Notes: a model not told the origin generated them from the letters alone. A DNA stretch of 64,000 nt from an uncultured Chloroflexia bacterium (GCA_963774265.1 CAVZDU010000001.1:64001-128000), one strand, 5' to 3'; counted from the first letter of the stretch, positions 9,783 to 34,521 are shown. Numbers and translations are program-made.

Positions 9783-9786
9783 CTGC

Positions 9787-11292
9787 TCAGCGCCTCACGA
9801 ACGGGGCAAAAACTACCGCCTTAGGATTGATAACCGTAATGGGTAAGCCTGTCGAGCCTGCGCGCACTGTAACGGTGCGAGTGCCCGGCTTCAGCGTTGC
9901 ATCCGCAGTCAACTTGATCGTCGAAATACCCCAGGGTGGGTTCATCGTCGAAGGACTGACCGTCCCCCGCACCCCCGAGGGCAGCTCCAGGGCGATTGAT
10001 GTTTGCGCCGATAACCCATAGCCCTGCAATGTAACGGTTGTCGATGCGCCTGGACGGAGCAGAACGACGCTGCTGCTGAGTATAAACGGCTGACTCGGAT
10101 TCGAACAAAGGGCGTAGGGTGGTGTAGCCTGCGCCACGGTGGGCAGCCCGTTTGTGTATGTACTCGTGCGAACGGTGTTCACATAAGCGTCGGTGATCTT
10201 GCGTCCCGCATCACCCGGCAGCGGCTGCACACCGGTGCAGCCTCCGCTATTCTGACAGTCCTGTCCACCCGTGGTCACTCGGAAGTCCGCGTTGCCACGG
10301 CTACCATACGCGAAATCGTTGAACCAGACAATTCCCCGCACAAATGGATAGTCAGCCAACTTGGTGTACAGGTTCGTGATCCAGGCAGCCTTAGCAGAAC
10401 CGCTCCCATCCTGATCGACGGATCCGATTTCCGAGATAATCACCGGTTTAGCATAGCGACATGCCAGATCGCGGAGGACGCCATCATACAACACCTCGAA
10501 GCTTTCCCAGGGTCGATCGCGCCAACTATACCAATTGTACCCGCTAAGACCGATCCAATCAACATAGGCGTCTCCGGGATAGTAGTTGTGAAGGCTATTC
10601 CAGGCTTCGTCTGGGTTGCTGGCGTAGTTCGGTGACCATATCCACTCGACGTTGTTGGCGCCCACCTCACGGAAGAGGTTCCGGACGCGCTGGAACATGG
10701 CAACATAGGATCCTGCATCCAGTCCATACCGTCCCGGCCACCACGCCACGTCGCTGATGTTCATTTCATGAGCGAAACGGATGATGAAGCGTTCCGGGCG
10801 CGCTTTGAGGGCCCGTGCATAGCTGCGAATATAACCATCGCAGCGCCCCGCGTTTACGGCGCGCAACGGCCCTTGCCCGTCATTGAAACCCAAGTCGCAT
10901 CCAGAGCTGTTAGCCGTGGGTTCCCATGCCAGGAGGATTGTCGGTCGACGTCCTTCCGGTACTTTGTTCAGAATATCATCGAGCAGGAATGGATCGAATG
11001 CAGACCAAGGGGTGAAGAAGGCGACAATCGCAAGATCCTTGCCGACCAGGCCATTGTAGGCCATGACCTCGTTGCCGTAGGAGTACCAATTGCCGTTGCC
11101 GTAATCGACAAACACAGGCCGCAGATGGGCGCCGTGTGCGATGCCAAGCACGCCCGCAACTGGGACGGCATCCGGACTCTCGGATTGAGGAATATCCTGT
11201 GCAAATCCCACGAGAGAGCTCGTGATGAAAAGCACTATAATTTGAGTCAACAGTAGGTAGAAGGCGCGAACGCGCCTGTTTTGGCCAGTCAT
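9787..11292 (-). CDS. Secreted GH26-family glycoside hydrolase with C-terminal Ig-like domain and VVFAPFVRR tail
   Basis: Signal peptide; IRFAHEMN, WIWSPN, YYPGDAYVDWIGLSGYN, IISEIG. Confidence 0.85.
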   Translation of the reverse strand: MTGQNRRVRAFYLLLTQIIVLFITSSLVGFAQDIPQSESPDAVPVAGVLGIAHGAHLRPVFVDYGNGNWYSYGNEVMAYNGLVGKDLAIVAFFTPWSAFDPFLLDDILNKVPEGRRPTILLAWEPTANSSGCDLGFNDGQGPLRAVNAGRCDGYIRSYARALKARPERFIIRFAHEMNISDVAWWPGRYGLDAGSYVAMFQRVRNLFREVGANNVEWIWSPNYASNPDEAWNSLHNYYPGDAYVDWIGLSGYNWYSWRDRPWESFEVLYDGVLRDLACRYAKPVIISEIGSVDQDGSGSAKAAWITNLYTKLADYPFVRGIVWFNDFAYGSRGNADFRVTTGGQDCQNSGGCTGVQPLPGDAGRKITDAYVNTVRTSTYTNGLPTVAQATPPYALCSNPSQPFILSSSVVLLRPGASTTVTLQGYGLSAQTSIALELPSGVRGTVSPSTMNPPWGISTIKLTADATLKPGTRTVTVRAGSTGLPITVINPKAVVFAPFVRR

Positions 11293-11319
11293 GAAAACCT
11301 CGCTGGTTTTGGTTACTTA

Positions 11320-12333
11320 CTACTGGGCGTCGGTATGCGTGCGAAGTCGCTCCTGGCGAGAGAGACCCCGGCGAAGGGTAACGGGCAGCCGGTGCAACTC
11401 GGCTCCCACAAAAGTCCCCAGCGCTGAAGCCAGATGCCAGGAGGGGCTATGTGCCATCCAGAAGAGTCTACGCCCCAGTGACTGATGTTTGAAAGGCTCT
11501 ATCGTGTAGGTGAAGCGCCAATCCGCCAGCACCTGCCTCGGGATACCGGCAAAGAGCCGCAACCAGTTGCGCCATCCGTGATAGACGTTACCGGGGAACA
11601 ACTCTTTCATCCCGGCAGCGTGGTCCACATTCTGCCGAAACTGTTCCAGAACGGGATAGTCGTGCGAGTGCACAACAGCCGAAGCAGGTTCGAATACCAG
11701 GCGATAACCCGTCTGGAGCGCTCGGTCGGCCCAGTCCGCGTCTTCTGCGAAATCGACAGCCCGAAATGGAACCTGCGCCCAAGCGCTGCGCCGCAGAGCC
11801 GAACTTGTATCAGAAAAGTAAACGTAATACAACTTGTCTCGTTGGTAAAGTTGCCTATCATCCGGCATGGCTTTGACCAGTCGCTCGTGACCCCCCGTTT
11901 GCCAAACGGTCAGCAATTGACGGGCGAGTGCTGGGGCGGCGTCAGGCCGTGGGATATGCCGGCTGAAAACGCCACCCACGGCCGGGTCCTCCTGCATTGG
12001 TCGTATCAGATGCGCCAGCCACAGTTCATTTGCTGGCGTTGCGTCTTGCGTCAGGTAGACAAGATACTGCGAATCCGGGTAAGCCAGTTTTGCCCCCAGA
12101 TTACGCGTCTCCCCGTGATTGAACTCCTCCGGCGGAATCTCGTGCAGTTGGAGAGGAAACCTCCGCAAGACTTCCTTCGACCGGTCTCCCGACCCTGAGT
12201 CGATTGCGATGACTTCGAACGGGCCGGCGTCGCGCTGTGCAAAAACGCTGTTAAGCAACTCTCCAAGGTAGCGTTCCCCATTCTTGACGAGGATGATGAT
12301 TGAAGAGGTTGGGAGATGTTCCAAGTCCTTCAC
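11320..12333 (-). CDS. Glycosyltransferase family 2 (rhamnosyltransferase-like)
   Basis: IDSGSGD, FNHGETRN, LTQDATP, FAEDADWA, HSHDY; GTG start overlaps upstream stop. Confidence 0.88.
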   Translation of the reverse strand: MKDLEHLPTSSIIILVKNGERYLGELLNSVFAQRDAGPFEVIAIDSGSGDRSKEVLRRFPLQLHEIPPEEFNHGETRNLGAKLAYPDSQYLVYLTQDATPANELWLAHLIRPMQEDPAVGGVFSRHIPRPDAAPALARQLLTVWQTGGHERLVKAMPDDRQLYQRDKLYYVYFSDTSSALRRSAWAQVPFRAVDFAEDADWADRALQTGYRLVFEPASAVVHSHDYPVLEQFRQNVDHAAGMKELFPGNVYHGWRNWLRLFAGIPRQVLADWRFTYTIEPFKHQSLGRRLFWMAHSPSWHLASALGTFVGAELHRLPVTLRRGLSRQERLRTHTDAQ

Positions 12334-13436
12334 CCTCTGCCAACCATGCTGCTTTCGAGGGCCCCCAGCCACAAGGTCGCTCCCTGCGCCAACGTCCTCT
12401 TTTCGTATAAGTAGCGTTGCGCCGCGTAGGCAATCACACGTGCCTGAGCCGGGTGCGTGATGAGATGCACCAGCGCCTCCTCCCAGGCGTCCGCGTTGTT
12501 ATCGACGAGCCACCCTGTCACACCCTGCTGAACGCTCGAAGTATACGCCGGCACCCGGCTGAAAACGCCTGCAGCACCGATCGCCGCATAATCCAGGAAC
12601 TTGATATCCGATTTGTAACCGTTGAAAGTTGTGGCCACAAGGGGCGCGAGCGCGATGTCCCAGCGGCACGATGCGCAGAACCAGGGCAGAAAGGCCGGGT
12701 ATTCCGCGAAAACCGGTCCAGGGTTGCGTTCATAGCATGGCATACCGTAGAAATGCGACCAGGTCTCAATACGGGTGGCAACCCCCACGATCTCGATGCG
12801 AATCTGTCCCTCGTATCGCTTGCAGATGGAACGCAGGGCCGGCACGATCAGGTGCAAATCATCATCGTGCGTCCGCGTCCCCATGTAACCGATGGTCACA
12901 GATGTGTCCTGGATGCTTCGTTGCCGCCAGGCGGATATCCAGGTGCGATAGTCTTCGACCAGCGCGCTCCTGGAAGGAGTCAACAGGCGCTCGTCAAGGT
13001 AATTGGGGATAACCAGGACGTGTGGGTTGAACTCCTGCAGTGCACTTCTGAGTGCGTCGGTACTCACAATGATTTGATCCGCGCTCCGCAGGAAGACATT
13101 CAGCGCATCCAATCGCGGCTGCGTCAGGTGGAAGTCCTTGCGCTCGCTCTGCAGTGCAATCAGATTGTCATCCAGGCTGTAAAAGAGCCGTGCTCCCCCG
13201 CGCCGCACCTGGTCGATCAACTCGCTGGCCACTTCAAACGATACATCGGGGCGCCACAGTCTATCCACTACGACCACGTCCACCCGGTCCATGCACAGTT
13301 CTCGCCCAGCCGACACACGCACCCAGGGCTGTAGACTGGGGTGGGTCAATGGTCTCAACAGGCGGGCGTGCGAATGGGAATATGGAAGGCCGTCGTGGCC
13401 ATGTTCGTACAGGACGTGCAGGCGACAAGGTCTCAT
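12330..13436 (-). CDS. Glycosyltransferase, GT-B fold
   Basis: YSLDDNL, IGYMGTRTHDDDL, DIALAPL..FNGYKSDIKFLDY. Confidence 0.82.
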   Translation of the reverse strand: MRPCRLHVLYEHGHDGLPYSHSHARLLRPLTHPSLQPWVRVSAGRELCMDRVDVVVVDRLWRPDVSFEVASELIDQVRRGGARLFYSLDDNLIALQSERKDFHLTQPRLDALNVFLRSADQIIVSTDALRSALQEFNPHVLVIPNYLDERLLTPSRSALVEDYRTWISAWRQRSIQDTSVTIGYMGTRTHDDDLHLIVPALRSICKRYEGQIRIEIVGVATRIETWSHFYGMPCYERNPGPVFAEYPAFLPWFCASCRWDIALAPLVATTFNGYKSDIKFLDYAAIGAAGVFSRVPAYTSSVQQGVTGWLVDNNADAWEEALVHLITHPAQARVIAYAAQRYLYEKRTLAQGATLWLGALESSMVGRG

Positions 13437-13535
13437 GTGAGCTCTCGTGCATAATTGAACGAGATCCTCATGGTTTCCAACGCATCGAGCATCAAAAGGA
13501 AACGGTCCACGCGCAACACATCCATGGATTTAGCA

Positions 13536-16500
13536 TCAGGCGAAGAGCGTCTGGAGGATATTGTATGTCGGAAGCTCGGGGTGGTAGGCGCACACTTCGG
13601 CCGTGCCTGCCTTCTGCAGGCGCTGCCTGAGGCTATGATCCTCCACCAGCCGCGTGAGTGCGGCCGTGCACGCGTCAGCCGAACCAGTATCGACCACCAG
13701 GCAGTTGTGATTGTGCCTGGCAAACGCGCTCGTGCCGCCCGCCTCCGGAACAATCACCGCCGCTCCGCTCGACATTGCTTCTTGGGCGGTGATCCCCAGC
13801 GCTTGAAAGGTGGAGAAATCCACAAAAATGTCGACCTCGTTCAGAAAGGACGCGACCTGGCGTTGGTTGAGGGCGCCAGCGAGGCGCCAATTGAAGTCCC
13901 TGGGCAGTTCAAGGAATCCGGGCTCCAGCGGATTCGTGCCGAAAAGGCGAATTTCGACGCGTGCGCCGAATTTGTGCTCGACCACGCGCAACACTTCCAT
14001 CGTCAATCTGGGCGCACGATGCGGCGTCATCGGACGAATCATTGCCGCAACCCGGAGAGGACGATCCGGCCACTCCGGAAGGGCACGTGGTCGCGGGCCG
14101 GAAGAGGGTGGCATTGTAGCAAGGGCCTACCAGCCCACACTCCATGCCCGTGTTGCTGATCACCTCGTTCCGAATCCACTCGGTGGTCGCAAATCGCACC
14201 ATTTGGGGAATGACCGAATACGAGGCCCAGGCAAGTTTGTAATCTGCGCTGGTGGGCTGATAAAAGTAGGGTTCGAAATCCTGAATGAAGTAACCGAGAA
14301 CAGTCAGCGGGGCCTGGGTGGCCAGCGGCAGCAACCAGAATGCACTGACATTGGCCGTGGCAATGACGGCGTCATACTGTGGACCGAGGCGACCCACGTC
14401 CTCGGGTTGTCCATAGAAAACGGGGATGTCAAGCCCGGGGTAGATGCGTTCAAAATCCTCGCGGTACTCAGCGAGATTGAATATGCTGACGTCGACGCCC
14501 ATGTCGCGCATGATGGCGGCCTTGGAGACGATCACCGCGCCACCACCGCCCGATGTCCGAACGGGTAGGACCCAGAGGACTTTGCGGCCACCGAAATTCT
14601 CCCGGCCCTGGCGCAACAGGGCTTCCTTTTGAGGCAGGACCGCCGCGTGCCCACGAATCCCTTCCAGCACACGATCGCCAGCGAGAAAATCTACGCCGGC
14701 CTGCACGCTGCGAGCTCCATGCTTCCGCTTAAGCGTCTCGTTGGCTCGATCGCATAATGCCCGTCGTTTCTCGTCGCTGTAGCTCTTCGAGCCAGCGTGA
14801 TAGACGTAAGTATCGTCGGCCAGTGCCAGCAACCAGCCACTTTTCCGCGCACGGAGGCAGTAATCATTCTCCTCGCCGTATCCAGCGCCGAAACACTCTT
14901 CGTCGAGGTAGCCGGTGTTGTCGATCACTTGCCGCCGGATCAGCAGGCAGAAACCATTGAGGAACGGCAAGCGCGGATACGACCGGGCAGAGTAGCGGGC
15001 AACGGTCTCGGCCATCGCGGTTACGGTAAGACCTTCGGGAAGCAGGTTATTAGCCCAATCAGCGCCGTCATACACCTGCGGAATTGACTGCCAGGTCGCG
15101 GCATTGGACAGCGGACCGACGATGCCTATCTGCGCGTCTGAAACCATGCACGCCACGAGGCGGTCAAGCCAGCCGGGGCCGACAACAGTGTCGCTGTTCA
15201 ACAGCAGGACGAAGTCAGCCGTTGAATGCTGCAAGCCCTGGTTCGCCGCGCGGGTATATCCGCGCGGCTGTTCATTCCGAATCAGCAGGAAGCCCGATGT
15301 TTGCGCCGATTCAGTGAGATAATCTGCGGTCGGTGCGTCACTGCCATCATCGACCAGGATGACCCGGTAGGGCGGCGAACTGTAAGACTGCAGTGACTCC
15401 AGACAAAGCTTCACGTCGTCCAGCGCGTTATGAACACAAATAACGATATCAACTACTGCCGCATGGGGAGGAATGGAGGGTGGCGCCGGCACATCATGGA
15501 TCACCAGTTCCGAGGCGCCCTTTGCAGTGCTTGTTTTCCAGCGCGCCTTACGCCACAGTGCCCCCAGCTGTTGATCGACCTCGTAGCGCAGGCGGTGGCC
15601 GTGGACATGCAGCGCCTCACGGTTGTGCAGCCGGATCAGCTGCCAGGCAGCATCCAGGATCTGGTCACGCGAGCTGCGGGGAGGAGCGATCGAGTTGCGT
15701 GCTCGCTGCAGAGTGCGAACGAACGCGTATCCGGGCGTACTCTCAAGCTCACTCCAGCGCTGGTGCCAACGGCGCAACTCCTGGTCCTGCTCAGTCAGTT
15801 CCCCGGTCACATCGCTCAGCGCCTGAGCCAACTCATCCGCCGGTCTTTCGTTCAGCCGCACTGAAGAGGCTGGCGTGGATTTGACAGCGCCTCCCGAGGG
15901 TTGCCGTAGTTCCAAAGCAAGGGCGCGCAGGTCGCGGTTTTCCTTACGCAGCACCCAGTAGCCGCGCTCATAATCGCGGATGATGCGATGCAACGGTTCC
16001 TGGCGCCGTCTGAGCCGAACCGCCCATTCTGTGATGAACGAGGCATCAAAATCCACATCGCGATAAAAGCCCTGCTGTGCAAACAACTCAGCCCAGTATT
16101 CCGGCGGCTGCACATTGAAATGGGTGACCTCTTTGTAATCGAAAGGGGTGGAGGAAAAGAGAATGTCGTCCGTGAAAAGACACAGATTCGCGATCGCTGC
16201 CCGCGCTTCATCCGCTCGCATGTGTTCCAGAACTTCAATTGAGACGATCAGATCGTAGCGCCGAGGCAGGGGCTCGGCAATCGAGCCTTTTTCGCAGTAG
16301 GGCCGGATAGAGGGGTGGACATTATCGATGGCAAAGGCAGAGACATCCCGGCCGTAGGCCTCCACGCCTCTACCCCGCAACCCTTCTACCAGAAAGCCGA
16401 GCGCGCAACCGGCATCCAACACACTCTGCGGACCGATATCAGCAATGATGCGGTCGGCAATACCTCGAAAGAATGCTAACCATTCTTCGTCACGTTCATA

Positions 16501-16566
16501 TTTGCGACCGCACCCGGTCGCGTAGTAGCGCGCATCGAACACCTCGGCCGGGGTCACTTCCGTCAT
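13536..16566 (-). CDS. Multidomain SAM-methyltransferase / coiled coil / GT2 / GT4 (WsaE/WsaF-like) glycan synthase, ~1009 aa, broken by a 1-bp insertion near 14097
   Basis: VLDAGCALG and EVLEH methyltransferase motifs; helical linker; VDDGS, LLNSDT, GYGEENDY (GT2); FIQDFEPYF and, after the shift, QALGITAQEAMSSG (GT-B). Removing one C gives LFRPRPRALPEWPD. Confidence 0.85.
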
Positions 16567-17867
16567 CCTGACTCGGCCTCCATCGCGATCAGCGGCTTGT
16601 TTGGAGTAAGCTCTGCCGTCCAGGTTCCACCCAACGTCACAACGCCGTAGCGCTCGCGAGCGCGCTCCGGCGACACGCGGAAAGAGTAAACCCGATCGTG
16701 GTAATCGTACACTTCGCTATCGGCGCTATCGACGGCAGCAACCGATACCAGATAGAGGCCTTCAAGCAGCGGCAATTTGGGAATCCGGTACACAACCTGA
16801 CCGTCGCCTTGAGTGGCCGGGATGTGCAACCCATCAAACTGCGTATTGGGGCCGCACACATGAACGCCGTTCTGATGGTGGATGGCAAGGCCGAAGACAG
16901 GCTCATGCCCACCCTCACGGATGGTGTACGAAAGCCGGATTTCCATCGGAGAACCGGTGAAAAACACCTTGCGCTCCTGCCCATCCTTGTCGCACAGCTC
17001 GATGCGTGTCACCTCCACACGGCCTGAACCCCACCGCCGGCCTTCGCCCGGTGCAGCCAGAGGTAGGGTGCCCGCTTTCGCCTGCGCTTCATCGGCCACG
17101 TGGTTGATGTAGGCCATCGCCACGTCCAACGGACCGCCCGCGGCCCGCACCCCGCCGTGATCCAGCCAAATGGCTCGGTTGCAGAGCGCCTGAATCGAGG
17201 AAATGTCGTGGGATACAAAAAGGAGTGTTCCGCCGTCGGAGCGGAACTGCTGGATGCTATCCAGACACTTATGCTGGAATGAAACGTCACCCACCGCCAG
17301 TACTTCATCCACCAGCAGGATATCCGGATCACTATGGATCGCAACGGCAAATCCCAGCCGCACGTACATACCCGACGAATAGTGCTTGATCGGGACATCG
17401 ATGAAGTCCCCAAGTTCAGCGTAGTCGATAATTTGATCGATGCGGTCCCGCATCTGACGCCGGCTCAAACCATACACCGAGCCGTTGAGAAAGATATTCT
17501 CGCGGCCGGTCAGCTCATGATGGAAGCCTGCGCCCAACTCGAGCAGAGAAGCAATGCGACCATTCACGCCGATCTCACCCTGGGTCGGTTCAAGGATGCC
17601 CGTAATGAGCTTGAGAAGAGTACTCTTGCCCGAACCGTTGGGCCCGATCACCCCGAAGCAGTCGCCTCGCTGCACGTCAAATGACACATCCTGGATCGCC
17701 CAAAACCGCTGCCGGCTGTCCTTTTGACGGTGAAGCAACCGTATGAAAGTGCTTTGAAATGAACGACTCACTTCGCGCCGCAGCGTAAAGCGCTTCGAAA
17801 CATGAGACAGGTGAATAAGCGGCTGATCGTTTGCCGGCGCCGCCCGATGATTGCGGCCAAACATCAT
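16563..17867 (-). CDS. wzt: Polysaccharide ABC transporter ATPase with C-terminal carbohydrate-binding domain
   Basis: GPNGSGKST, YSSGMYVRLGFA, LLVDEVLAVGD, RWGSG-led Wzt_C domain. Confidence 0.92.
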   Translation of the reverse strand: MMFGRNHRAAPANDQPLIHLSHVSKRFTLRREVSRSFQSTFIRLLHRQKDSRQRFWAIQDVSFDVQRGDCFGVIGPNGSGKSTLLKLITGILEPTQGEIGVNGRIASLLELGAGFHHELTGRENIFLNGSVYGLSRRQMRDRIDQIIDYAELGDFIDVPIKHYSSGMYVRLGFAVAIHSDPDILLVDEVLAVGDVSFQHKCLDSIQQFRSDGGTLLFVSHDISSIQALCNRAIWLDHGGVRAAGGPLDVAMAYINHVADEAQAKAGTLPLAAPGEGRRWGSGRVEVTRIELCDKDGQERKVFFTGSPMEIRLSYTIREGGHEPVFGLAIHHQNGVHVCGPNTQFDGLHIPATQGDGQVVYRIPKLPLLEGLYLVSVAAVDSADSEVYDYHDRVYSFRVSPERARERYGVVTLGGTWTAELTPNKPLIAMEAESG

Positions 17868-20004: not shown

Positions 20005-20130
20005 GTTCAACTCCCAAGGTCACAAAAATACCTCAGCCTGATCTGGTAGATCGGCCGAAGCTACGGAAAATGATTATAGTCAGAAACACGGATTCAAAAA
20101 ACTTGCGGTGCAGGTCGCGCGTGAATGTAT

Positions 20131-22988: not shown

Positions 22989-22993
22989 ACCTT

Positions 22994-24037: not shown

Positions 24038-24069
24038 GGAGGACCTCCGATGCCAATCTATAGCAGGAC

Positions 24070-24588
24070 CTAAGGCCAAGCCAGTTCAAGTTTGCCCAGG
24101 TCAACGCGTTCATCGGCCTTAATGGAGAAAACCCGAGGCGAATCCTCTGAACGCGACTGCGGGATGACCAGCCAGTTCAATGGAGCCCATATCACGAGGA
24201 AATAATCCCCAGGCAGCACATTGTTCAGCAAAAATCGTCCCTGCTCATCTGTCTTACCGCTGATATCGCCTTGTTCAGGCCGGGCGCTTCCCATCACCGC
24301 AGGCAGTTCAGTTGCACTATCCTGCAAGTGATAGAGATAGAAGTAGGTCCCAGGCACGGGGCCATTGCCGGTGTAAGTGAAGATTTCCCCGCCGACCGTG
24401 GCCTTCCCGGCTTCTGACGCAGGTAGTGGGAGAGCATTGTTGGCGACAACGGGAGGCGGCAGCGGCGAAATCGGCGATTCGGTCGCCAACGGGGGCATGG
24501 TTGTTGCTGGTAAGCTACTGCAGGCAGCGAACACCCACATCGTCATCAGCAGGACAAAGACAATCCACCAACTCGATCTTGTCATCAT
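24070..24588 (-). CDS. Lipoprotein with Pro-rich linker and carboxypeptidase-regulatory/CnaB-like beta domain
   Basis: Lipobox FAAC; TDEQGRFLLNNVLPGDY. Confidence 0.7.
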   Translation of the reverse strand: MMTRSSWWIVFVLLMTMWVFAACSSLPATTMPPLATESPISPLPPPVVANNALPLPASEAGKATVGGEIFTYTGNGPVPGTYFYLYHLQDSATELPAVMGSARPEQGDISGKTDEQGRFLLNNVLPGDYFLVIWAPLNWLVIPQSRSEDSPRVFSIKADERVDLGKLELAWP

Positions 24589-24621
24589 TCTTCTAAGTAT
24601 AGACTAAAATCGCCCACACGT

Positions 24622-24654
24622 AAAACTGGCCAGCCGTTGGTGCGGCTGGCCAGT
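24622..24654 (-). terminator. Rho-independent terminator of the 4-repeat secreted protein gene
   Basis: actggccagccg-6 nt-cggctggccagt 12-bp stem with T run on minus strand. Confidence 0.8.
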
Positions 24655-24687
24655 CCTTACAGGCTGAACCTACAGGATCGCTAAAGG

Positions 24688-26118
24688 TTACGGCTGCGTG
24701 AAGGCATTGTGTGCCATGAAGTTGTCACCGCTGGCCAGGCTTGGGTTGATGGATGCCAGGAACGTGAGCTGAGCGAAGCCCGCCAGCGCATGGTCCGAGT
24801 CCACCACCAGGGTGCCATTCCAGCCATCGGGCAGTTCCGGCACTGCCGTGCGGTGATTCTGGATCAGGTTGCCACCCGCCGGGATCGACGCACTAAATGA
24901 GATCGGGGTTGCGCTGCCGCCAGCTGCGATGTATTCTGCCGAAGGCGTGTACGTCAAGGTCGCGTTCGCTGCGTTGGCCGTATCCAGGTTCTGGACCGTG
25001 ATCGCGGTCGCGAACCCGTTCGGCAGGCGCTTGGCAACCAGCGGGACAACGACCTTCGTATCGGTCGAGCCGCCCCGGAAAGCCTCGTAAGCCGCCGCTT
25101 CGCCGGTGGCCACAAAGCGCATCTGGACGAACGCCACGACGTTGCCCGTCGAAGTGACAACACAAGAACCCGTGTACAGCGCAGGAACGGTCATGTCGGT
25201 CACAGGGTTGACGGCCCAGGCGGCCTTGTTCGGAACGGCGTCCGCGTTGGTCTTACTAAACGGATTCGCGTTGTTGGTGTCTTTGCAGTTCACGGTGATG
25301 CCGCCGGCCGCAATCGGACCGCCGCTCAGGTTCTGGACCGAGATCGGCGTGCTCAGGCTATTCGCCAGGCGGGACGTGAAGAGCGGGACGAACCACTGTT
25401 GCGCCGGTGCAGACACCGGGAAGGCGTTGAAGGTCTGCATCGCGTCGCCGGTGAAGAAGTTGGCGACGACTGCAACCTGCCCGCCACTCAGCGCGCGCAC
25501 TTCGGCGGAACCGATGAAGCCATCGCTCAACCCGGGTTCGGTAGCGAGATCGTACAGGAACGCTGCGTTCGGTGCGATCGCAATGCCGGTCTTGGTGAAG
25601 CCGGCGCCGCCGACACTGGAGAGCAACTCAACTTCCACGCTCACGGAGGCCGTGCCCGAATTCTGGATCACGATCTGGCTATTGGCAAGGCCCGTTGCGG
25701 TGGGCCGATTCTTAGCTGCCAGCGGAACATAGAAGGACGCGGCGCCGGCCGAGAAACCGGAATAAGCGCCGCTGCTGGTCGGGTTTTGACCACGTGCGAG
25801 GACCTGGACAACCGCGCCCACAGACTTATCGGCGCTCACAACAACCGAGCCACGGCCCGCAGCGAGAGCCGAGTCAAGGTACTGGCGGAAGATTTTCTGA
25901 CCGCCATTGGCTGCCAGCGTGAAGCTCTCATCGGCTTTCCACACCGTGCCATCCGTCTTGAAGTATTGCACGGTGCCGCCTGCCGGTTCACTTTCAAGGT
26001 TCACAAGTGTGAAGTTGGTGCTCAGGCTCTTGGTGGTCGACTGCGCCGCACCCGTAAGTACTGTCGCCAGTATCAGGGTGAGCGTGAGAAGGGTGATTGA
26101 GACGGTCCTTCGCTTCAT
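24688..26118 (-). CDS. Secreted 476-aa protein with four ~110-aa beta-sandwich-like repeats; candidate S-layer/surface scaffold
   Basis: AGGAGG RBS; signal MKRRTVSITLL..TGAA; repeats share SxIxVQN, GSxxV, VxAxV and AYxxF; rich in A/S/T/G/V. Function is inferred. Confidence 0.8.
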   Translation of the reverse strand: MKRRTVSITLLTLTLILATVLTGAAQSTTKSLSTNFTLVNLESEPAGGTVQYFKTDGTVWKADESFTLAANGGQKIFRQYLDSALAAGRGSVVVSADKSVGAVVQVLARGQNPTSSGAYSGFSAGAASFYVPLAAKNRPTATGLANSQIVIQNSGTASVSVEVELLSSVGGAGFTKTGIAIAPNAAFLYDLATEPGLSDGFIGSAEVRALSGGQVAVVANFFTGDAMQTFNAFPVSAPAQQWFVPLFTSRLANSLSTPISVQNLSGGPIAAGGITVNCKDTNNANPFSKTNADAVPNKAAWAVNPVTDMTVPALYTGSCVVTSTGNVVAFVQMRFVATGEAAAYEAFRGGSTDTKVVVPLVAKRLPNGFATAITVQNLDTANAANATLTYTPSAEYIAAGGSATPISFSASIPAGGNLIQNHRTAVPELPDGWNGTLVVDSDHALAGFAQLTFLASINPSLASGDNFMAHNAFTQP

Positions 26119-26182
26119 AAGATTGCCTCCTGCGGAACGATAGGTCGAGTTGACGAGGTCTTGGGGACTTCGTACCGGGCCT

Positions 26183-26211
26183 AGTATGGACGCTGCGCGG
26201 CTAAAAAGCAA
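26183..26211 (-). promoter_or_regulatory. Putative sigma70 promoter for the 4-repeat protein
   Basis: TTGCTT-N17-CATACT on minus strand. Confidence 0.5.
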
Positions 26212-26243
26212 TACCCCAAGTGGGTTAACTATGCCCGCGCGGG

Positions 26244-27215
26244 TCAAACAGGCGTATCTTCCCGCCCTTTTCGCGTCGCGCGGAGCGCAAAGCCTGCCAG
26301 CACCCAGGCAAGTTCGGCCAGGACCATGGCCAGTCGCGAGATAACTGCGACGAGGCCCCCCATCGCCACGGGCAGACCGGCCGCTTGTACCAGGACTGCC
26401 GACATGACCGCCTCACGCACACCAATGCCAGACGGGACAAAGAGGATAAGAAACCCGACTGCCCACGAGGCCGAGGCTGCCAGCGCGCTGACGCGTAGAT
26501 CGATGCCGGATCCCGGAGCCACGGCCCGGGCAACCCAATAGACCGACGCGGCATAGGAGAGCCAAAGCGGCACTGTCAGCGCCAACGCGGCGACCCACGC
26601 GCCGGGCTGCGGCGCAGAAGGAAACGCCAACCGCCTGAACCGCCTGCCAGCCCATTCCACAAACCGCGGCGCGAGAAAGACGGCCAGGCACATCAAGATG
26701 ATGGACCCGACGGGCGCAACGTGACGCCAGGGTTCTCCGAGAAGCGGCCCGCCAGTGACTCCGACGCACGCGATTGCTGTCACAAGGATCGCGGCTGCTT
26801 CGAGCACCGACCCGGTCAACGAGAGGGGATAGCCCACACCGTGGTCGTCCAGCAGCCACTGGCTTCGGCTCAAGTAGCCCCACACGGTGCCGGGGATGTA
26901 GCGGGGCAGAAAGGAGATCATAAACCCTTCTGTCGTCTCCCGCAGGGTGAGGGCCACGCAGAGATAACGCATGATGGCGCGCCAGGCCACCATCTGGAAA
27001 GCGGAAAGTACGAGCGCTGCGACGAATGCCGGGATCAATTGCCCAAGCGAAAGCTCGCCCAGGCCATCATACTGTTGCACCGCGAGCCAGGCGATCCGCA
27101 GCTGGTTGGCGAACAGCCCCAGGCCGAGCACCAGGCCAACGCGCCAGAGGACCGCGCGCAGCGACCAACGTGACCGCCCCGGGCGACCGCTGTCCGGGTC
27201 AGGAAGCATGGTCAT
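26244..27215 (-). CDS. YbhN/UPF0104 (LPG-synthase TM-like) flippase-type membrane protein
   Basis: LPRYIPGTVW, FVPSGIGVREA, SRL motifs; ATGA coupling. Confidence 0.8.
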   Translation of the reverse strand: MTMLPDPDSGRPGRSRWSLRAVLWRVGLVLGLGLFANQLRIAWLAVQQYDGLGELSLGQLIPAFVAALVLSAFQMVAWRAIMRYLCVALTLRETTEGFMISFLPRYIPGTVWGYLSRSQWLLDDHGVGYPLSLTGSVLEAAAILVTAIACVGVTGGPLLGEPWRHVAPVGSIILMCLAVFLAPRFVEWAGRRFRRLAFPSAPQPGAWVAALALTVPLWLSYAASVYWVARAVAPGSGIDLRVSALAASASWAVGFLILFVPSGIGVREAVMSAVLVQAAGLPVAMGGLVAVISRLAMVLAELAWVLAGFALRATRKGREDTPV

Positions 27216-27967
27216 GAGCTTACGCCTGGCTTCCAGAGAAGCCAGTTGAAATTTGGAAAAAACGGCAACGCCGAGCGCCAGATCCACCGGGGAAGTCTCC
27301 GCCCGAGGCGCGCGATCGGGCGCGTATCCGCGGCCAACTGGCTCTCCAACACTTCGAGCGTCACATCCTGGATATCAAAACGCTGCCACAGGCGACGCAA
27401 GCCCCACATTGGCCGGGAACGTTCGTAGTAGCGATCCCCGCGGCGCAGAACGCGCAAAGTGGCGTTGGCCAGGGGGGAGGGCAGCCAATGCACAAAAGGC
27501 AGGTTGTAGTGAAGCTCGATCGGAAACAGCCAATTTGGACCGCTAAAGAAGACTACCCCTCCCGGCGCAAGTACACGGTAAATCTCCTCGGCTAGCCGCG
27601 TGTCGTCCGGAACGTGCTCGTACACCTGCGCGCACAACACCACGTGAACGGATGCATCAGCGAGCGGCAAACGCATCGCGTCACCCCGAACGAAACGCAC
27701 GGCGGCGCGACCCTCGAGCGTCGTTGCGCCGAGCGCCAACGCGTCATATTCCACGCCGACCATCGTGCGAAAAAGTGAGGCTAATGAGGCGCTGATCAAG
27801 CCCGAGGAGCAGCCGATGTCCAGGCAGACTGCTTCAGCCAGAGGCCACGCCACGTGCCGTTCGAGGAGCATCCGAATCTTCGCTGCACGTCGCGAGCGGC
27901 TGGTCGCGTCCCGTACGGCGGCGGATAACTCATAGAAACCGTCCTGATAACCGCGCGGCTCAGCCAC
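27212..27967 (-). CDS. Class I SAM-dependent methyltransferase
   Basis: CLDIGCSSG, GDAMRLPLAD, VYEHV, RVLAPGG. Confidence 0.88.
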   Translation of the reverse strand: MAEPRGYQDGFYELSAAVRDATSRSRRAAKIRMLLERHVAWPLAEAVCLDIGCSSGLISASLASLFRTMVGVEYDALALGATTLEGRAAVRFVRGDAMRLPLADASVHVVLCAQVYEHVPDDTRLAEEIYRVLAPGGVVFFSGPNWLFPIELHYNLPFVHWLPSPLANATLRVLRRGDRYYERSRPMWGLRRLWQRFDIQDVTLEVLESQLAADTRPIARLGRRLPRWIWRSALPFFPNFNWLLWKPGVSS

Positions 27968-29153
27968 TGACGCCTCGGTAAATTTCGACCAGTCGAGCAG
28001 CGATGATATCCCAATCGTACTCCTTTTCTGCCCGGAGTCGCGCAGCCCGGCTCATGGCCTGCCAGCCAGGGTCGTCGCTCAAGACCGCCGTGATAGCCTC
28101 GGCCAGCGCCTGGGGCTGCGCAGGTGGCGCCAATTTGCCCACCTCCTGCGTGACGACGTCGACGATGCCATCTACAGCGCTCGCGACAATGGGAGTGCCG
28201 CACGAGAGTGCTTCCAGGAGGACCACGCCCAGCCCTTCCTCCAGGCTCGGCAAGACAAACAGCCTCGCCCGGCGCATCGCGGCCACGACTTCCGCCTGCG
28301 GCAGGAAGCCCGCCATGTCGATGCGATCGACGATGCCCAACGCCGCGGCCTGTTCGCGGAGCGCTTGCTCATCCGGCCCATCGCCCAGCATGACCAACCG
28401 ATAGCCAGGAAGGGCTGTGAGGACAGATGGCATGGCCTCGATCAAATGGTTGGCGCCCTTGCGCGGAATCAACGAGCCCACAAACAGAATCAGAGGTTCA
28501 CGTTCCGCCACTGGCGCCGGGGTGAACCGCCCGGTATCGACGCCATTCGGTACGATTGTCAGGCGGTCCATCGGTATGCCGGTGCGTGCGGTCGCCTGCG
28601 CCAGCGCGCGGCTCAGTACCAGCACGCGGTCGCAGGCCCGCAGTGTGGCCGCGGTCAGCCGGCGCCCGAGCCCGCTTCTTGTCACCTGAAAAATGTCGCT
28701 GCCCTGCAGAGTGGCAACGACCGGCCGGCGGTGGACGGGCCGCGCAAGCACAGCCGCAAGCGCCGACAACGTCCAGTTGGCATGCACCACGTCGCAATCA
28801 CGTGCCCACCGTGCGATCGCCAACACGTGCGCCAGGCCAAAAGGCACGAACAGCAACCGGGCCAGCTTGTTACGTCGCCAGATGATGGGCAGTCCACCGC
28901 CTTCGCGTCTCAGGATCTCCCAGTTCTCCCTGGGCATATAGCGCGGGCGGATGACCTCGATGCCTTCAAGCGTCTCATGCGTGGCCGCGCCCGGTGCGTG
29001 CATCGCGATCACGCGGACCGCAGCTCCCGTCCGGCAAACGGCGCGGGCGGCCTCCCAAACAAAACTGCCCTGCGCGTCGCCGGCCCAGCGGGGAAACGCA
29101 GTTGTAACGATACAGACTCTCAATTTGCGATCCATTTCCCTCAAGGGGTTCAC
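27960..29153 (-). CDS. Glycosyltransferase family 4
   Basis: VHANW, VPNGVD, FVGSLIPRKG, PSLEEGLGVVLLEA. Confidence 0.92.
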   Translation of the reverse strand: MNPLREMDRKLRVCIVTTAFPRWAGDAQGSFVWEAARAVCRTGAAVRVIAMHAPGAATHETLEGIEVIRPRYMPRENWEILRREGGGLPIIWRRNKLARLLFVPFGLAHVLAIARWARDCDVVHANWTLSALAAVLARPVHRRPVVATLQGSDIFQVTRSGLGRRLTAATLRACDRVLVLSRALAQATARTGIPMDRLTIVPNGVDTGRFTPAPVAEREPLILFVGSLIPRKGANHLIEAMPSVLTALPGYRLVMLGDGPDEQALREQAAALGIVDRIDMAGFLPQAEVVAAMRRARLFVLPSLEEGLGVVLLEALSCGTPIVASAVDGIVDVVTQEVGKLAPPAQPQALAEAITAVLSDDPGWQAMSRAARLRAEKEYDWDIIAARLVEIYRGVSG

Positions 29154-30651
29154 CTGCTCGATGCCGTACGCTCCAGGTAAATGGGCGACCAGCCAACGGC
29201 AAGCCGCCCTCCGGGCACGGCCAGCTTCTGACCGAATTTATCGTAAGCCGCGAGGAAGCCGGCCGGCAAAACCAGGCTGACATCACTTCCATCCGTGGAC
29301 CAAAGGATAAGCAACTGCCGCCCGTCCTCTTTCCCAAACTGTTGCCCCGACACACCCTGGAACTCGGTCACTGCGCGCTGATAGCGCGCCCGGCCGAGCT
29401 GGCTGCCCAGGTACTTGTACGCGGCGAAAGCCGGCTTGGGCGTAAGGTCAGGGAGGATCAGCCCCTTGTATTTGAACTCCGTGATCAGTGCATAGTAGGT
29501 CGCACCGGAAAGACCCAGGCCGTAGGCCTCAGCGTAGACGCGCGGGATAAAAGCGGCCCCAACCTCGTTACATTCCGGTGTGGGATCGTCGCATTTCAGC
29601 GCAACCTCGCCTGCAAACACGGGCTTCTTGTCAAACCCGTAGCGTGCCAGTATCCGCCGCACGAACCCGACTTTCTCCGGCAACCCCGTGCCGCCACCAG
29701 CCGGATCGCTCCAGGCATAGTAGCTATGCATGCGCTGTGGAAGATCCATGCGCAGAACTGCGTAGGAATGCACATCCACCATGTCGAAGTAGGGTCCGCC
29801 GCCATTGCGCAGCACGCCTTCCAAGAAATGACCCGAGGCCCACCGCCGTTCGTTGTCGCAGCCGTTACCTGGCGACGTCGTCTCAGGGTCACACTCGAGC
29901 AATAAGCCGGCCATCATGACCTGCGCACCGGGATCTGCCGCCTTGATGCGAGGGTAGACAACCTTCAGCATGTCGGCATAGTAAGGTCCACCATAGTATG
30001 GATCGTTTGGATCGCCCCAGCAGCCGAATGGCGCATCCCCCCACACCTCGGCCGGCGCCACGTCCGGCTCATTGCCGATCTGCCAATGGCGCACGCCGTA
30101 GCGCGTCTGGCTACCATAACGAGCCACCACTTGTTCCATGAACCGCGCAAAGGCCTCGAACTTGTCGCGCCTCACTGGACCGCACGGATACGAAGCAACA
30201 CCCTGCGCCCACGTTGGCGTCATTTGGATGTTGATGATCGGCTCGAAAGCGTCCGCGGAGCGCGCAGCAACTCCTGTTCAAGTTGGGCGAGCACTTCCCA
30301 ATGGTTCTGCCCTTCGACCGGCTCTACTTCCAACCACGAAAGCTCCCGATAGCGCCGCACCCAACGCGCGCCGAGCTGTTGAATGCGGTCGTAAGCGTAC
30401 TGGTTGGCGAATCCTTCAACTGCCACACCCAGCAGTGGCGCGGCCGCGCGATCCCTGTTCGCTGCGACTGGCAGTTGGGTCCGCTTCGCAGGCGCCGGGG
30501 TTGCCTCGGCTGCGGGTTTGCTGCGAATCACCGGTTTTGCGGTAGGGGTTGGTTTCGGGGCAACCACAAGGTCGTCACCAGGCGGCCATCCGGGAGTCAG
30601 GCCGGCAAAGATGGTGACGACTATTGCGAGCACGATTCTGGCAGCGATCAT
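29150..30651 (-). CDS. Secreted GH39/GH5-like glycoside hydrolase (~500 aa), split by a frameshift near 30255; N-terminal TQLPVAAN motif
   Basis: ORF 30220-30666 (signal, LGARWVR, WLEVEP) continues in the -1 frame as FEPIINIQMTPTWA...WQIGNEPD...VFAGE. Confidence 0.78.
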
Positions 30652-32639
30652 TGGCTGAGACTCCATTCGTTGCGCAGCGGGGCGAACAGCAACAGGCTCG
30701 CTCCCTGGCCGTAAAGCTGCAGCCCGGTGTTAGGAATCGCCGCATACTCGGCCTGTGTAGCCATCGGACCGGTCGGCGCGGAGACCCCTCTCACCCTGCC
30801 GTCAGCATCAACCTGCCGCCAGGCGCCCGTTTGGACAGATCGAACGGCGGCCGGGGCAATGCTGGCGTCCAGCCACCCTGCGGATGCTGCCCGGCGCAGG
30901 CCGTATCCGATCAGTGCGGAGCCACTGGTCTCATGATAGAAGTCAGGACGGTTCACGATTGTGGACCACAGACCCGACGCATCCTGACAGGCGACCAGAC
31001 CACGCTGCTGTGCGTGGAGCCTGGCCAACAATGCCTGGGTGTCGATCGCGTCCGCGGGCGCGTCCCGCAGCGCTTCCACCGTCGCGACCATAGCCCAACC
31101 ATTGCCGCGCGCCCAAAAATGCGGGCCAAAATACCAGTTTTCGCTCGCATCCCACCCGTGGCGAAAAAGCCCGGTCAGCGGATCCTGGAGGTGTTTTGCA
31201 TGGAGCAAGACTTGCTGCCGCGCAAAATCATGGTAGAGCGGCCCTGCTGATAGATCGGTGCGCCCCATCGCCATCATGAACGGTACGACGCCAATCAATG
31301 TGTCGTCCCAGACGGTGTCGCCCTCATGGAAGAGCGTGCCATCTGCCGCCCGTGGCGCCTCATTATACAGGTAATGCAGCACCTCGACCGCGTAAGCGTG
31401 GCGAGCAAAGCCCCCTTCCGCCTGCCACACACTAATGGCCGCCAGCCCCAACAGCCCATCGTTCACATGCCCGATAGGGTGGCTCGCTGTGATGCAGCCG
31501 TCGATCCAGTCGCGGACCCAAGCCAGGTATCGGCGGTCTCCGGTCTCCTGCCAAATTGTGATGAGACCGTAGGCCCACGTGCCGGCCTCCCAATCGCAGC
31601 GCAGTCCGGCCAGCATGCCCCGGCCGGTTGCACCGATATGATACAGAGGACTTTCGAAGGAGCGCAGAAACACGTCGTGACCCTGGCCCTCCGGCGCGGC
31701 AGCAAACACAAGCGAACTGCCGTCACCAGCAACCCTGGGTGTGAACACGCTCCAACCGGGCCGAGACCAGAGCTGCCGCGCACCGGCGCCGGCGGGATTG
31801 ACGAGTGTCACCTGGTCGACGCCACCCTGGGCTGAAACGTAAACGACTCCGCTTCCATCAGGAATGACAAGCGGGTAGTTGACAGCCGAATCAAGGGATG
31901 TCATACGGGTCACATCGGAGCCATCTGGGGCCATGCGATAGGCGGCACTGACGCCGTCCCGTTCGCTGCGGAACACAATTGAGTGACCGTCTGCCGAAAA
32001 TGACGGTAAGCGATCCACGGCCGGATCATTCGTCAGTTGGACCCACTCAGACCCGGCGAGTGCTGCCCGGTAGATGTCCCAATTGCCGGCCCGGTTGCTG
32101 CTGAAGGCAAGATGGTCGCCGTCCGGCGCCAACGCCGGATGCACCTCATCGGTGACCTTGGCGCCTGCGGCCAAACGCACGTTTCCCCCGTCGAGATCAA
32201 CGAGGTAAATATCCCAATCGCCTGAACGATTTGACGCAAAGATCACTGACTCGCCGTTTGAGGTGAAGGTAGGGGTGTCCTCATCGTCATTCGGAGTCAT
32301 CGTCAGATTAACGGCATCACCAGCTGATGTGCTGGCCAACCAGACTTCAGGATGAGCCGAGGCATCGACAAATACAACCCGTGTGTTATCCGGCGAGAGC
32401 GCAGGCTGCCTGGCATCGCGCGGGCCATACGTGAGCTGCACCGTGGAGGTGAACTGGTACGAGTTGAGCACCAGTGGCAAACTAGCGGAGAAGTCCACAC
32501 TGCCGGGCGCCGGCGAGTCGGGAATCTCCGACAACCAGGCGCGTGAGGCCCGGCTTCGCGGAGTTGCCCATAGCGCGAGCAACGCGAATGCAGCCACGGC
32601 GAGGATGCCGCCCATCCGCATCGAACATCGTGCCGCCAT
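30648..32639 (-). CDS. Secreted TolB-like (PD40) beta-propeller fused to GH105/GH88 unsaturated glycosyl hydrolase; N-terminal SLPLVLN motif
   Basis: PALSPD and FSSNRAGNWDIY PD40 repeats; WDDT, FRHGWD, FWARGNGW, ETSGSAL, YGQG. Confidence 0.85.
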   Translation of the reverse strand: MAARCSMRMGGILAVAAFALLALWATPRSRASRAWLSEIPDSPAPGSVDFSASLPLVLNSYQFTSTVQLTYGPRDARQPALSPDNTRVVFVDASAHPEVWLASTSAGDAVNLTMTPNDDEDTPTFTSNGESVIFASNRSGDWDIYLVDLDGGNVRLAAGAKVTDEVHPALAPDGDHLAFSSNRAGNWDIYRAALAGSEWVQLTNDPAVDRLPSFSADGHSIVFRSERDGVSAAYRMAPDGSDVTRMTSLDSAVNYPLVIPDGSGVVYVSAQGGVDQVTLVNPAGAGARQLWSRPGWSVFTPRVAGDGSSLVFAAAPEGQGHDVFLRSFESPLYHIGATGRGMLAGLRCDWEAGTWAYGLITIWQETGDRRYLAWVRDWIDGCITASHPIGHVNDGLLGLAAISVWQAEGGFARHAYAVEVLHYLYNEAPRAADGTLFHEGDTVWDDTLIGVVPFMMAMGRTDLSAGPLYHDFARQQVLLHAKHLQDPLTGLFRHGWDASENWYFGPHFWARGNGWAMVATVEALRDAPADAIDTQALLARLHAQQRGLVACQDASGLWSTIVNRPDFYHETSGSALIGYGLRRAASAGWLDASIAPAAVRSVQTGAWRQVDADGRVRGVSAPTGPMATQAEYAAIPNTGLQLYGQGASLLLFAPLRNEWSLSQ

Positions 32640-34499: not shown

Positions 34500-34521
34500 G
34501 GGCGGCCGGGGGTGATTGCCG

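Follow-up and report, generated by a model that had tools for sequence, protein, structure and literature searches.

A candidate strand-docking tag on secreted proteins of Chloroflexota and its predicted four-domain receptor

The DNA analysed here is a stretch of 64,000 nucleotides from an uncultured Chloroflexia bacterium (GCA_963774265.1 CAVZDU010000001.1:64001-128000), called the window below, in which a minus-strand gene cluster (positions 9787-32639) encodes a secreted protein of four beta-sandwich repeats, P0001, together with six secreted cargo proteins that each carry a short hydrophobic motif centred on a proline (Table 1). The first-pass annotation of this locus, made from the nucleotide sequence alone, had proposed that the motif in each of the six is a free beta-strand which matches the strand missing from domain 1 of P0001 and docks there by donor-strand complementation, which would tether the cargo to the cell surface. 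The core of that proposal, the completion of domain 1 by a free strand, came through all the computational tests that were run, and its scope did not: the tag is not the property of six local enzymes and is found genome- and phylum-wide. All nine motifs on which the proposal was built were found where it had placed them, by translation and, for the cargo motifs, by counting by hand. The pattern written for them (h-x-[LVA]-P-h-h-x-[KRN], where h is hydrophobic) fits most, the misfits being KRTQLPVAAN, with Thr at the first position, and WFVPLFTSR, with Ser before the Arg.

Table 1. Features of the locus and its flanks, in coordinates of the window.
Feature	Coordinates	Strand	Basis and remarks
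Acceptor ('scaffold') protein P0001	24688-26118	-	476 residues, from translation; signal peptide and four beta-sandwich repeats
Domain 1 of P0001 (residues 27-127), no strand A of its own; predicted docking site	25738-26040	-	DSSP on the model
Intrinsic strand A of domain 2 (SFYVPLAAKNR)	25705-25737	-	Model strand 128-136; P132 invariant in alignment A1
Intrinsic strand A of domain 3 (QWFVPLFTSR)	25369-25398	-	Model strand 239-249
Intrinsic strand A of domain 4 (KVVVPLVAKR)	25027-25056	-	Model strand 355-362
Vgb-lyase-like beta-propeller cargo	22994-24079	-	Pfam Vgb_lyase, E 1.7e-35; C-terminal tag YSIYLPLVSKR* at 22997-23029
GH26-like cargo with C-terminal Ig-like part	9787-11292	-	Pfam Glyco_hydro_26; tag AVVFAPFVRR* at 9790-9819
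Glycosidase-like TIM-barrel protein with CARDB	20131-21606	-	Pfam CARDB; N-terminal motif GRLLLPAIAN at 21448-21477
Glycosidase-like protein, no clear family	21603-23045	-	N-terminal motif NTLTLPAVFN at 22863-22892
Glycosidase-like gene, frameshifted, no clear family	29150-30666	-	Motif KRTQLPVAAN at 30457-30486
PD40 propeller and GH88 cargo	30648-32639	-	Pfam PD40, Glyco_hydro_88; N-terminal motif FSASLPLVLN at 32463-32492
Lipoprotein, 172 residues	24070-24588	-	Weak Pfam fn3_3; lipobox, Pro-rich linker, small beta-sandwich, end ..LELAWP*
LPG_synthase_TM-type membrane protein	26244-27287	-	Pfam; upstream of the acceptor; in 4/5 other genomes (missing in the G027 stretch)
Methyltransferase	27212-27967	-	Pfam; upstream of the acceptor; one to three present in 4/5 other genomes (missing in the G004 stretch)
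GT4 glycosyltransferase	27960-29153	-	Pfam; upstream of the acceptor; in 5/5 other genomes
Large polytopic DUF6541-type membrane protein	32652-34532	-	Pfam; homologues in 5/5 orthologous loci
GT2 glycosyltransferase	34522-35481	-	Pfam; in 2/5 stretches

The signal peptide of P0001 ends in ..TGAAQ and the mature chain begins STTKSLSTNFTLVNL, with no VPL-type segment ahead of repeat 1. Such a strand precedes repeats 2-4 only, as FYVPLAAKNR (residues 129-138, 25705-25734), WFVPLFTSR (residues 242-250, 25369-25395) and VVVPLVAKR (residues 356-364, 25027-25053), and a spare tag is absent from both ends of the protein, as judged from its translation and from an alignment of 30 close homologues (alignment A1). 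The AlphaFold2 (AF2) model built on this alignment is confident (predicted local distance difference test, pLDDT, 91.6; predicted template modelling score, pTM, 0.88) and contains the four anticipated beta-sandwiches, the first of them one strand short of the other three: seven strands are assigned to domain 1 (33-40, 46-54, 59-68, 74-78, 90-96, 100-107 and 116-120), and domains 2-4 have the same set plus an extra first strand, which is the VPL segment (Table 1). DSSP counts 7 strands in domain 1 versus 8-9 in domains 2 and 4. As modelled, domain 1 has the character of an incomplete immunoglobulin (Ig)-like acceptor fold from which one strand is absent, consistently across homologues. Neither Pfam nor NCBIfam holds a family that matches P0001, Pfam being blank even at E<=10, and no S-layer homology (SLH) or other known wall-binding module was found in that scan. 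Foldseek comparison of the model with the PDB gave generic tandem Ig/macroglobulin-type beta-sandwich matches only (template modelling score about 0.1), plus the single-domain match 1nc7 (TMt 0.73), and was uninformative on function or groove, and a PDB sequence search with P0001 gave chance rows only (E 0.17), with no solved relative by sequence.

Homologues of P0001 number more than 560, at about 480 residues and 50-87% identity, and the few that are named are labelled Roseiflexus, Anaerolineae or Chloroflexota. All 30 sequences of alignment A1 pass from the signal peptide straight into [QG]STTK.LSTNFT with no strand before repeat 1, and conservation extends to the three VPL strands and the C-terminal GDxFMAHNAFTQP. 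A mature N-terminus was recognisable in 103 of 120 listed homologues, and in none of them (0/103) does a strand motif separate the signal peptide from domain 1. Nine distant relatives of about 490 residues, fetched from weak matches to alignment A1, all have a signal peptide and a strand-less first domain (9/9), followed by three further domains that are each preceded by an h-[YF]-x-P-x-h-h-[KR]-like segment; in the alignment that includes these distant relatives (A2), the prolines of the A strands in domains 3 (P245) and 4 (P359) are invariant. A profile search of 1.84 billion representatives recovered 6992 clusters at E<=0.001 (3941 at 1e-10 and 1640 at 1e-30). Among the best 150 of the 6992 clusters, 95 are of stand-alone size (440-560 residues) and 88 of these 95 have a signal-peptide-like start; a tag-like motif within 45 residues after that start occurs in 0 of the 88. 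The absence of the strand from repeat 1, as first described in P0001 itself, is thus upheld in every one of these samples, and the superfamily appears, at the level of sequence, to be defined by a signal peptide, four beta-sandwich repeats and a strand A ([YF]-x-P-h-h) ahead of repeats 2-4 only.

A strand in front of repeat 1, which would speak against the proposal if homologues generally kept it, was encountered only where a foreign domain has been fused ahead of the receptor. Seven such longer forms (P0407, P0419, P0423, P0435, P0436, P0446 and P0455) have a foreign domain at the N-terminus and then Y-[LVAQ]-P-[DE]-h, the motifs being TYLPDT, VYAPDT, FYLPEI, TYLPDV, IYVPDL, TYLPDL and TYQPDI, 4-9 residues ahead of the first strand of domain 1 (strand B), and two fragments repeat this arrangement of a tag-like strand before domain 1. 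We read these fused homologues, with a tag-like strand in cis right before domain 1, as putative covalent versions of the proposed tag-receptor complex; they indicate that a strand of this kind is accepted at the domain 1 site. Other members of the family carry a tag themselves: in P0384 and P0470 the signal peptide leads straight into a strand-less domain 1 and the C-terminus is tag-like, P0475, P0484 and P0478 have tag-like C-terminal tails (the five proteins measure 1029-1701 residues), and a divergent four-repeat paralogue of 494 residues (L018, G014:C13, 570-2054, plus strand) ends in ..PPTPKRVFLPLVLR (RVFLPLVLR), and is both a family member and a tag bearer. With acceptor and donor in one chain, proteins of this kind could assemble into head-to-tail chains.

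The nearest named family is DUF5719 (PF18986), to which three homologues align over 48-103 of 319 profile positions with 25.8, 24.5 and 27.2 bits, one of the three passing the cut-off of 26.2 bits; P0001 itself gives no match at E<=10. DUF5719 is uncharacterised and commonest in Actinomycetota in the Atlas listing (Atlas feature score 0.93), and the ESM Atlas gave unnamed Chloroflexota clusters only. Proteins closely homologous to the receptor and to the GH26 cargo also appear under the names of archaeal metagenome-assembled genomes (P0028, P0052, P0099, P0106, P0111 and P0281, named for Bathyarchaeia, Methanomethylicaceae and Nitrososphaeria); they are 52-58% identical to the Chloroflexota proteins and are likely to come from mis-binned contigs.

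The genome to which the window belongs comprises 5.5 Mb in 10 contigs, and its six-frame translation yields 17110 open reading frames (ORFs) of at least 100 residues. Genome-wide, the terminal tag [YF]LP[LIM][IV]x[KR] is found at about 20-25 C-termini and at about 8-10 sites after signal peptides. Its core, [YFW]LP[LIMVF][IVLM], occurs 128 times among the 17110 ORFs, with 24 occurrences within 16 residues of the stop versus about 9 expected under a uniform distribution; most of these 24 belong to proteins of 330-1700 residues and end in x[KR] followed by 0-3 residues. The regular expression [YFWV][LV]P[LIMF][IVLAF].{1,2}[KR] is matched 66 times in 2.27 million residues (ORFs of at least 200 residues), of which 15 matches are C-terminal, 20 fall in the first 110 residues and 31 are internal, and P0001, with 3 matches versus 0.014 expected, is alone among the ORFs of the genome in having two or more. 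The weaker form LP-h-h-h-N within 50 residues after a signal-peptide-like stretch occurs three times in the genome, all three in this locus.

When 17 other C-tailed proteins were scanned with Pfam, 13 matched families and 4 matched none; the families are a subtilase with PPC, a peptidase C25, a penicillin amidase, three Sortilin/BNR propellers, a VWA protein with CARDB, CBM96, DUF11, an Rv2525c-like protein, two InlB B-repeat proteins and an fn3 protein with CARDB. The C-terminal tails stop 1-6 residues past the motif, with no transmembrane helix after it. Because the motif is enriched at termini, is conserved in orthologues and homologues and occurs in unrelated Pfam families, it is, on these comparisons, real: a modular tag at the termini of secreted proteins that are unrelated to one another.

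Conservation is also evident among the cargo proteins of the locus, whose orthologues keep the N-terminal motifs in place and often in more canonical form: in genome G004 the counterparts of GRLLLPAIAN and NTLTLPAVFN are ISLPTVLS and the canonical RIFLPLAAVSR, and in genome G023 the orthologue of the PD40/GH88 cargo has VAYLPAVFQA, each at the same position, and the tail of a Vgb-like orthologue is IYLPLIRLNS*. Of 120 listed GH26 homologues, 79 end in the strict tag expression and most others in variants of the type YLP[SGN][VI]R, the tag being retained through architectures of about 400, 500 and 675 residues. The strict pattern is found in 28 of 120 Vgb-like homologues, nearly all of the closest 50 or so ending in ..PYF..YLPL[IV]x[KR]; the distant ones (P0184-P0237) either have nothing after the propeller or close with hydrophobic and then basic residues, a C-terminal transmembrane anchor. 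Where these have the anchor, the Chloroflexota subfamily has the YLPLV tag, and the two look like alternative retention devices at one position.

The KRTQLPVAAN protein has an N-terminal hydrophobic anchor and a Pro/Thr-rich linker ahead of its motif. Its gene is broken near 30223-30277 by a frameshift into two ORFs in different frames (30220-30666 and 29150-30223), through either a sequencing or assembly error or decay to a pseudogene; the orthologue in G023 is intact (570 residues) and shows a lipobox, a linker of about 110 residues and then AYLPAVSAG. Similarity among the glycosidase-like cargos in pairwise BLAST is weak, two N-termini aligning from the motif onward at E 0.07, which is too weak to decide on a common ancestry of their motifs.

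Docking was modelled for the mature receptor (residues 27-476, alignment A1) together with the last 36 residues of the Vgb-like protein. Three runs gave values of the interface score ipSAE of 0.93, 0.96 and 0.95 (score 0.95) versus 0.01 for the best of 3 controls; 58 of 80 solved complexes attain the mark applied to this score, as do 2 of 110 mismatched pairs, counts that hold only roughly with a custom alignment. Contact agreement between runs was at least 92% and the pLDDT of the partner at least 65, and, because the receptor has no solved relative by sequence, the result does not represent recall of a known complex. The confident interface comprises residues 347 and 349-361 of the partner (YSYSIYLPLVSKR), which meet domain 1 at residues 31-38 (first strand), 48-52, 79-106 (strands 90-96 and 100-107) and 119-125 (last strand), and domain 2 at residues 150-154, 186-188, 216-220 and 229. 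L355, the residue before the proline, contacts receptor residues 36, 91-94, 104 and 121-122, and Y354 and P356 contact residues 150-152 and 216-218.

The tag is accordingly placed by the model at the junction of domains 1 and 2, on the only domain without a first strand of its own. From the contact list and the sequence equivalence, a hydrophobic residue preceding the proline in every case, we infer that the docked tag shares its register with the VPL strands of domains 2-4. The modelled complex supports a strand supplied by another chain, and it places the Vgb-like tail, one of the six motifs, on the domain for which docking had been forecast. A monomer model of the Vgb-like protein (AF2; alignment A3, 36 homologues) shows a propeller with pLDDT of about 97, whose last strand spans residues 327-331, and a tail (332-347) with no secondary structure and a pLDDT of 77 and then 52; the tag is therefore predicted to be free in the monomer. 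The notion of an isolated free strand at either terminus fits this tail and does not fit the N-terminal motifs, which are not at a free end.

Co-occurrence across genomes was examined by counting tails with a DNA pattern for [YF]LPhhxR-stop against a reversed-pattern control, a genome being termed tail-rich at five or more net hits; this narrow pattern catches only part of the tails. With P0001 alone as the query, 9 of 41 related genomes were matched, and relatives without a single-protein match still showed tails over control (for example, 25 versus 0, 29 versus 1 and 18 versus 1), so that the existence of tail-rich genomes without a scaffold, named by the first-pass annotation as a result that would refute it, seemed to be real. 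Profile A1 matched 27 of the 41 and profile A2 matched 35, including all eight genomes of the genus, the weak matches being four-repeat proteins of about 490 residues and of the same design. The class of tail-rich genomes without receptor that the narrow queries had suggested was rejected on these grounds and has largely dissolved, two genomes remaining. By A2, 21 of 23 tail-rich and 14 of 18 tail-poor related genomes have a match.

A phylum-wide sample of 201 Chloroflexota genomes of at least 90% completeness included 56 with an A2 match. Tail-rich genomes make up 12 of these 56 versus 0 of the 145 without a match (Fisher 8.6e-8, the relatives not being independent) and, counted by family, 7 of 26 versus 0 of 29 (p = 0.003). 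The 145 genomes without a match contain 146 tail hits versus 196 control hits, the pattern being no commoner there than its control.

The mechanism that we favour would operate as follows. A modular tag with the consensus h-[YF]-L-P-[LIMF]-[IV]-x-[KR] would lie at the extreme C-terminus, or just ahead of the first folded domain, of unrelated secreted proteins, and the P0001 protein would be its receptor. Domains 2-4 of this receptor would each be completed by their own preceding strand A of the same pattern, and domain 1, starting right after the signal peptide, would leave the strand A position empty at the junction with domain 2. After export, the cargo tag would insert into domain 1 as the missing strand, with the residue before the proline buried in domain 1 and the flanking residues packed against domain 2, giving a tight non-covalent 1:1 attachment of cargo to a receptor that would itself be part of the cell envelope, perhaps glycosylated, and held there by a co-conserved lipoprotein or by glycan. 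This strand docking is the best-supported explanation, resting on models, comparative genomics and the natural fusions, and we assign it a probability of about 0.55; that the tag binds the receptor is suggested by the complex model.

Several observations weigh against strand docking. There is one docking site per receptor for some 30 or more tagged proteins in the genome, and the receptor itself lends no support to display at the surface: it has a cleavable signal peptide and nothing that would anchor it. The docking result comes from a single job with one family of models and covers one motif of the six, and with a repeat protein a model may tend to repeat the strand layout of domains 2-4. 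Where the motif is N-terminal, it lies about 10 residues from the catalytic domain and has no free end, and the G023 orthologue of the KRTQLPVAAN protein needs no tag for its retention, because a lipid anchor and a linker of about 110 residues precede the motif there. The sample of related genomes does not discriminate, because the superfamily is nearly universal in it, and shared ancestry can mimic co-occurrence. Two tail-rich genomes, G009 (13 tail hits versus 0 in the control; 92% complete, 760 contigs) and G018 (8 versus 1; 97% complete, 420 contigs), gave no receptor match when queried with profiles A1 and A2 and two single proteins, both assemblies being fragmented. Finally, 44 of the 56 receptor-positive genomes are not tail-rich by the narrow DNA pattern, among them one genus with five genomes that encode proteins of about 475-482 residues.

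Some of these same facts would follow if the tag were a real sorting or retention signal that is read by another partner, such as a wall polymer, the membrane surface, an envelope protein or a processing enzyme, with the likeness to strand A convergent and the complex model a false positive. The two tail-rich genomes without a receptor match, the many receptor-positive genomes with few tails and the single site for many cargos are all compatible with this, and a mark that 2 of 110 mismatched pairs reach leaves room for a spurious pass. Such a partner would, however, leave unexplained why the tail scores 0.95 against 0.01 for the control and settles on the one strand-less domain, why no ORF of the genome other than the receptor contains the tag pattern in repeated internal copies, why the cis fusions put a tag-like strand exactly before domain 1 and why none of the 145 receptor-negative genomes is tail-rich; nor is the motif followed by a transmembrane helix, unlike signals of the sortase or exosortase type. 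We consider another partner rather unlikely, and it is less probable still that the empty site of domain 1 serves self-assembly of the receptor into a layer or fibre, by binding a receptor copy, the lipoprotein or tagged family members, with the tagged enzymes as minor or incidental clients. That idea draws on the pairing of a strand-less domain 1 with a tag-like C-terminus in P0384 and P0470, on the tails of P0475, P0484 and P0478, on the 494-residue paralogue of G014 that ends in a tag and on a lipoprotein gene that always adjoins the receptor gene, but the receptor of the window has no spare tag at either end, no conserved tag-like motif was seen in the lipoprotein linker among six orthologues, and most tagged proteins are enzymes of unrelated families.

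That the motif might have no common partner at all, and be an intramolecular capping strand or a linker boundary of its own terminal domain, is suggested by its position always within about 10 residues of a folded domain and by the similar distance between motif and barrel in three glycosidase-like paralogues. We regard this as improbable, since the motif adjoins many unrelated folds, persists in GH26 homologues whatever domain precedes it and, in the monomer model of the Vgb-like protein, has low confidence and no structure. Chance, that is, a degenerate hydrophobic-Pro pattern picked out by eye, can be set aside almost entirely: the pattern as first written is indeed loose, with 502 matches genome-wide, and two of its nine instances misfit it, yet the enrichment at termini, the conservation at the same place in orthologues and hundreds of homologues and the excess over the reversed-pattern control in many genomes all oppose it.

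Strand docking as proposed here has its mechanistic parallel in chaperone-usher pili, which are built by donor-strand complementation and exchange and in which homologous subunits polymerise. As in these pili, a beta-sandwich/Ig-like domain without one strand would receive it from another polypeptide through a non-covalent and very stable link, and archaeal threads and cannulae are described as donor-strand fibres with a similar mechanism. Unlike in pili and archaeal fibres, the donors here would be some 30 or more unrelated enzymes and binding proteins with a tag of 7-9 residues; a Pfam scan of the proteins of the locus and its neighbours showed neither a PapD-like chaperone nor an usher, and by Foldseek and PDB sequence search P0001 has no sequence relation or clear fold relation to pilins. 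The arrangement also resembles cellulosome scaffoldins, in that diverse secreted enzymes share a common terminal module for a dedicated non-catalytic carrier. A dockerin is a folded calcium-binding module of about 70 residues that binds the face of a cohesin, whereas the tag of 7-9 residues would complete a fold, with one site per carrier rather than many, and no cohesin or dockerin Pfam family was detected in the receptor, the six cargos or the 17 other tagged proteins.

In LPXTG/sortase and PEP-CTERM/exosortase signals, a transmembrane helix and then a basic tail come after the motif, and cleavage falls to a dedicated enzyme. The tag shares with them a short proline motif near the C-terminus of many unrelated secreted proteins in one lineage and differs in that its tails end 1-6 residues past the motif, which can also be N-terminal; the conserved neighbourhood contains no sortase- or exosortase-type enzyme, no genome-wide search for those families having been made. 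In form, the tag and receptor come closest to SpyTag/SpyCatcher, a split CnaB2 domain that was engineered and locks by an isopeptide bond, and in which a short tag at either terminus likewise provides the missing strand of an incomplete beta-sandwich; the present system would be a natural one, with no covalent step indicated. A full-text literature search, which did not cover supplementary files, returned no description of the tag, the receptor family, DUF5719, DUF6541 or such a system, and PMC13319060 concerns other envelope structures.

Chloroflexota are abundant in soils, sediments and wastewater, and their envelope is unusual and little studied; to our knowledge, how they hold enzymes at the cell is poorly understood. 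Taken at its widest, and with somewhat less than even odds, the evidence may describe an attachment system that extends through the Chloroflexota, in which a YLPLV-type tag of 7-9 residues, N- or C-terminal on dozens of secreted proteins in each genome, is captured without an enzyme, as the missing strand, by an abundant, probably glycosylated four-domain envelope protein, tagged members of the family chain head-to-tail and the fusions are covalent versions. If this is true, its role would be comparable to that of LPXTG/sortase in Firmicutes. The finding offers a concrete tag, a candidate receptor and a testable mechanism for enzyme retention in the phylum. The unnamed receptor superfamily is large (6992 representative clusters at E<=0.001), and a role for it would give an annotation to thousands of 'hypothetical proteins'; recognition of the tag would improve the prediction of location for many secreted hydrolases. 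Donor-strand complementation as a general cargo tag, and not for fibre building, would widen the known uses of that mechanism, and a natural short peptide with its receptor, active at either terminus, could serve as a protein-coupling tool.

Among the genes around the receptor, that of the 172-residue lipoprotein lies directly downstream in 6 of the 6 loci compared, and the lipobox cysteine is present in all 6; in the five other genomes, which represent different genera, the protein has 168-183 residues and ends in ..WP*. It may be the membrane anchor of the receptor. The conserved membrane proteins, methyltransferases and glycosyltransferases listed in Table 1 are joined, in this genome and in G004, by an ABC (ATP-binding cassette)-type glycan export system and by the tagged glycosidases, and the gene neighbours together suggest a glycosylated envelope protein with a lipoprotein partner. 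Within P0001, two sequons resemble N-glycosylation sites, N35-F36-T37, in which all three residues are invariant, and N263-L264-S265, in which N263 is invariant and S265 nearly so; its mature N-terminus is conserved and rich in Ser and Thr. Along with the adjacent glycosyltransferase genes, these features hint at glycosylation of the receptor. In RNA libraries (four runs from two studies), contigs contain fragments with 90-99% likeness to the receptor gene; the runs were selected with that gene and their contigs provide no expression level, and they give a weak hint that relatives of the P0001 gene are transcribed.

The glycan pathway of the ABC-transporter type occupies 8433-20010 of the window on the minus strand, with an ABC-2 permease at 17864-18727, an ATPase at 16563-18044 and several GT2/GT4 genes, and is syntenic in G004 and partly so in G023. 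Within the same interval lies an 885-residue ORF (13909-16566, minus strand; methyltransferase plus GT2) that aligns with its G004 orthologue over residues 1-727 only, its last 160 or so residues being of low complexity and rich in Arg, Ser and Gly; the 3' end of this gene may be frameshifted or mis-joined.

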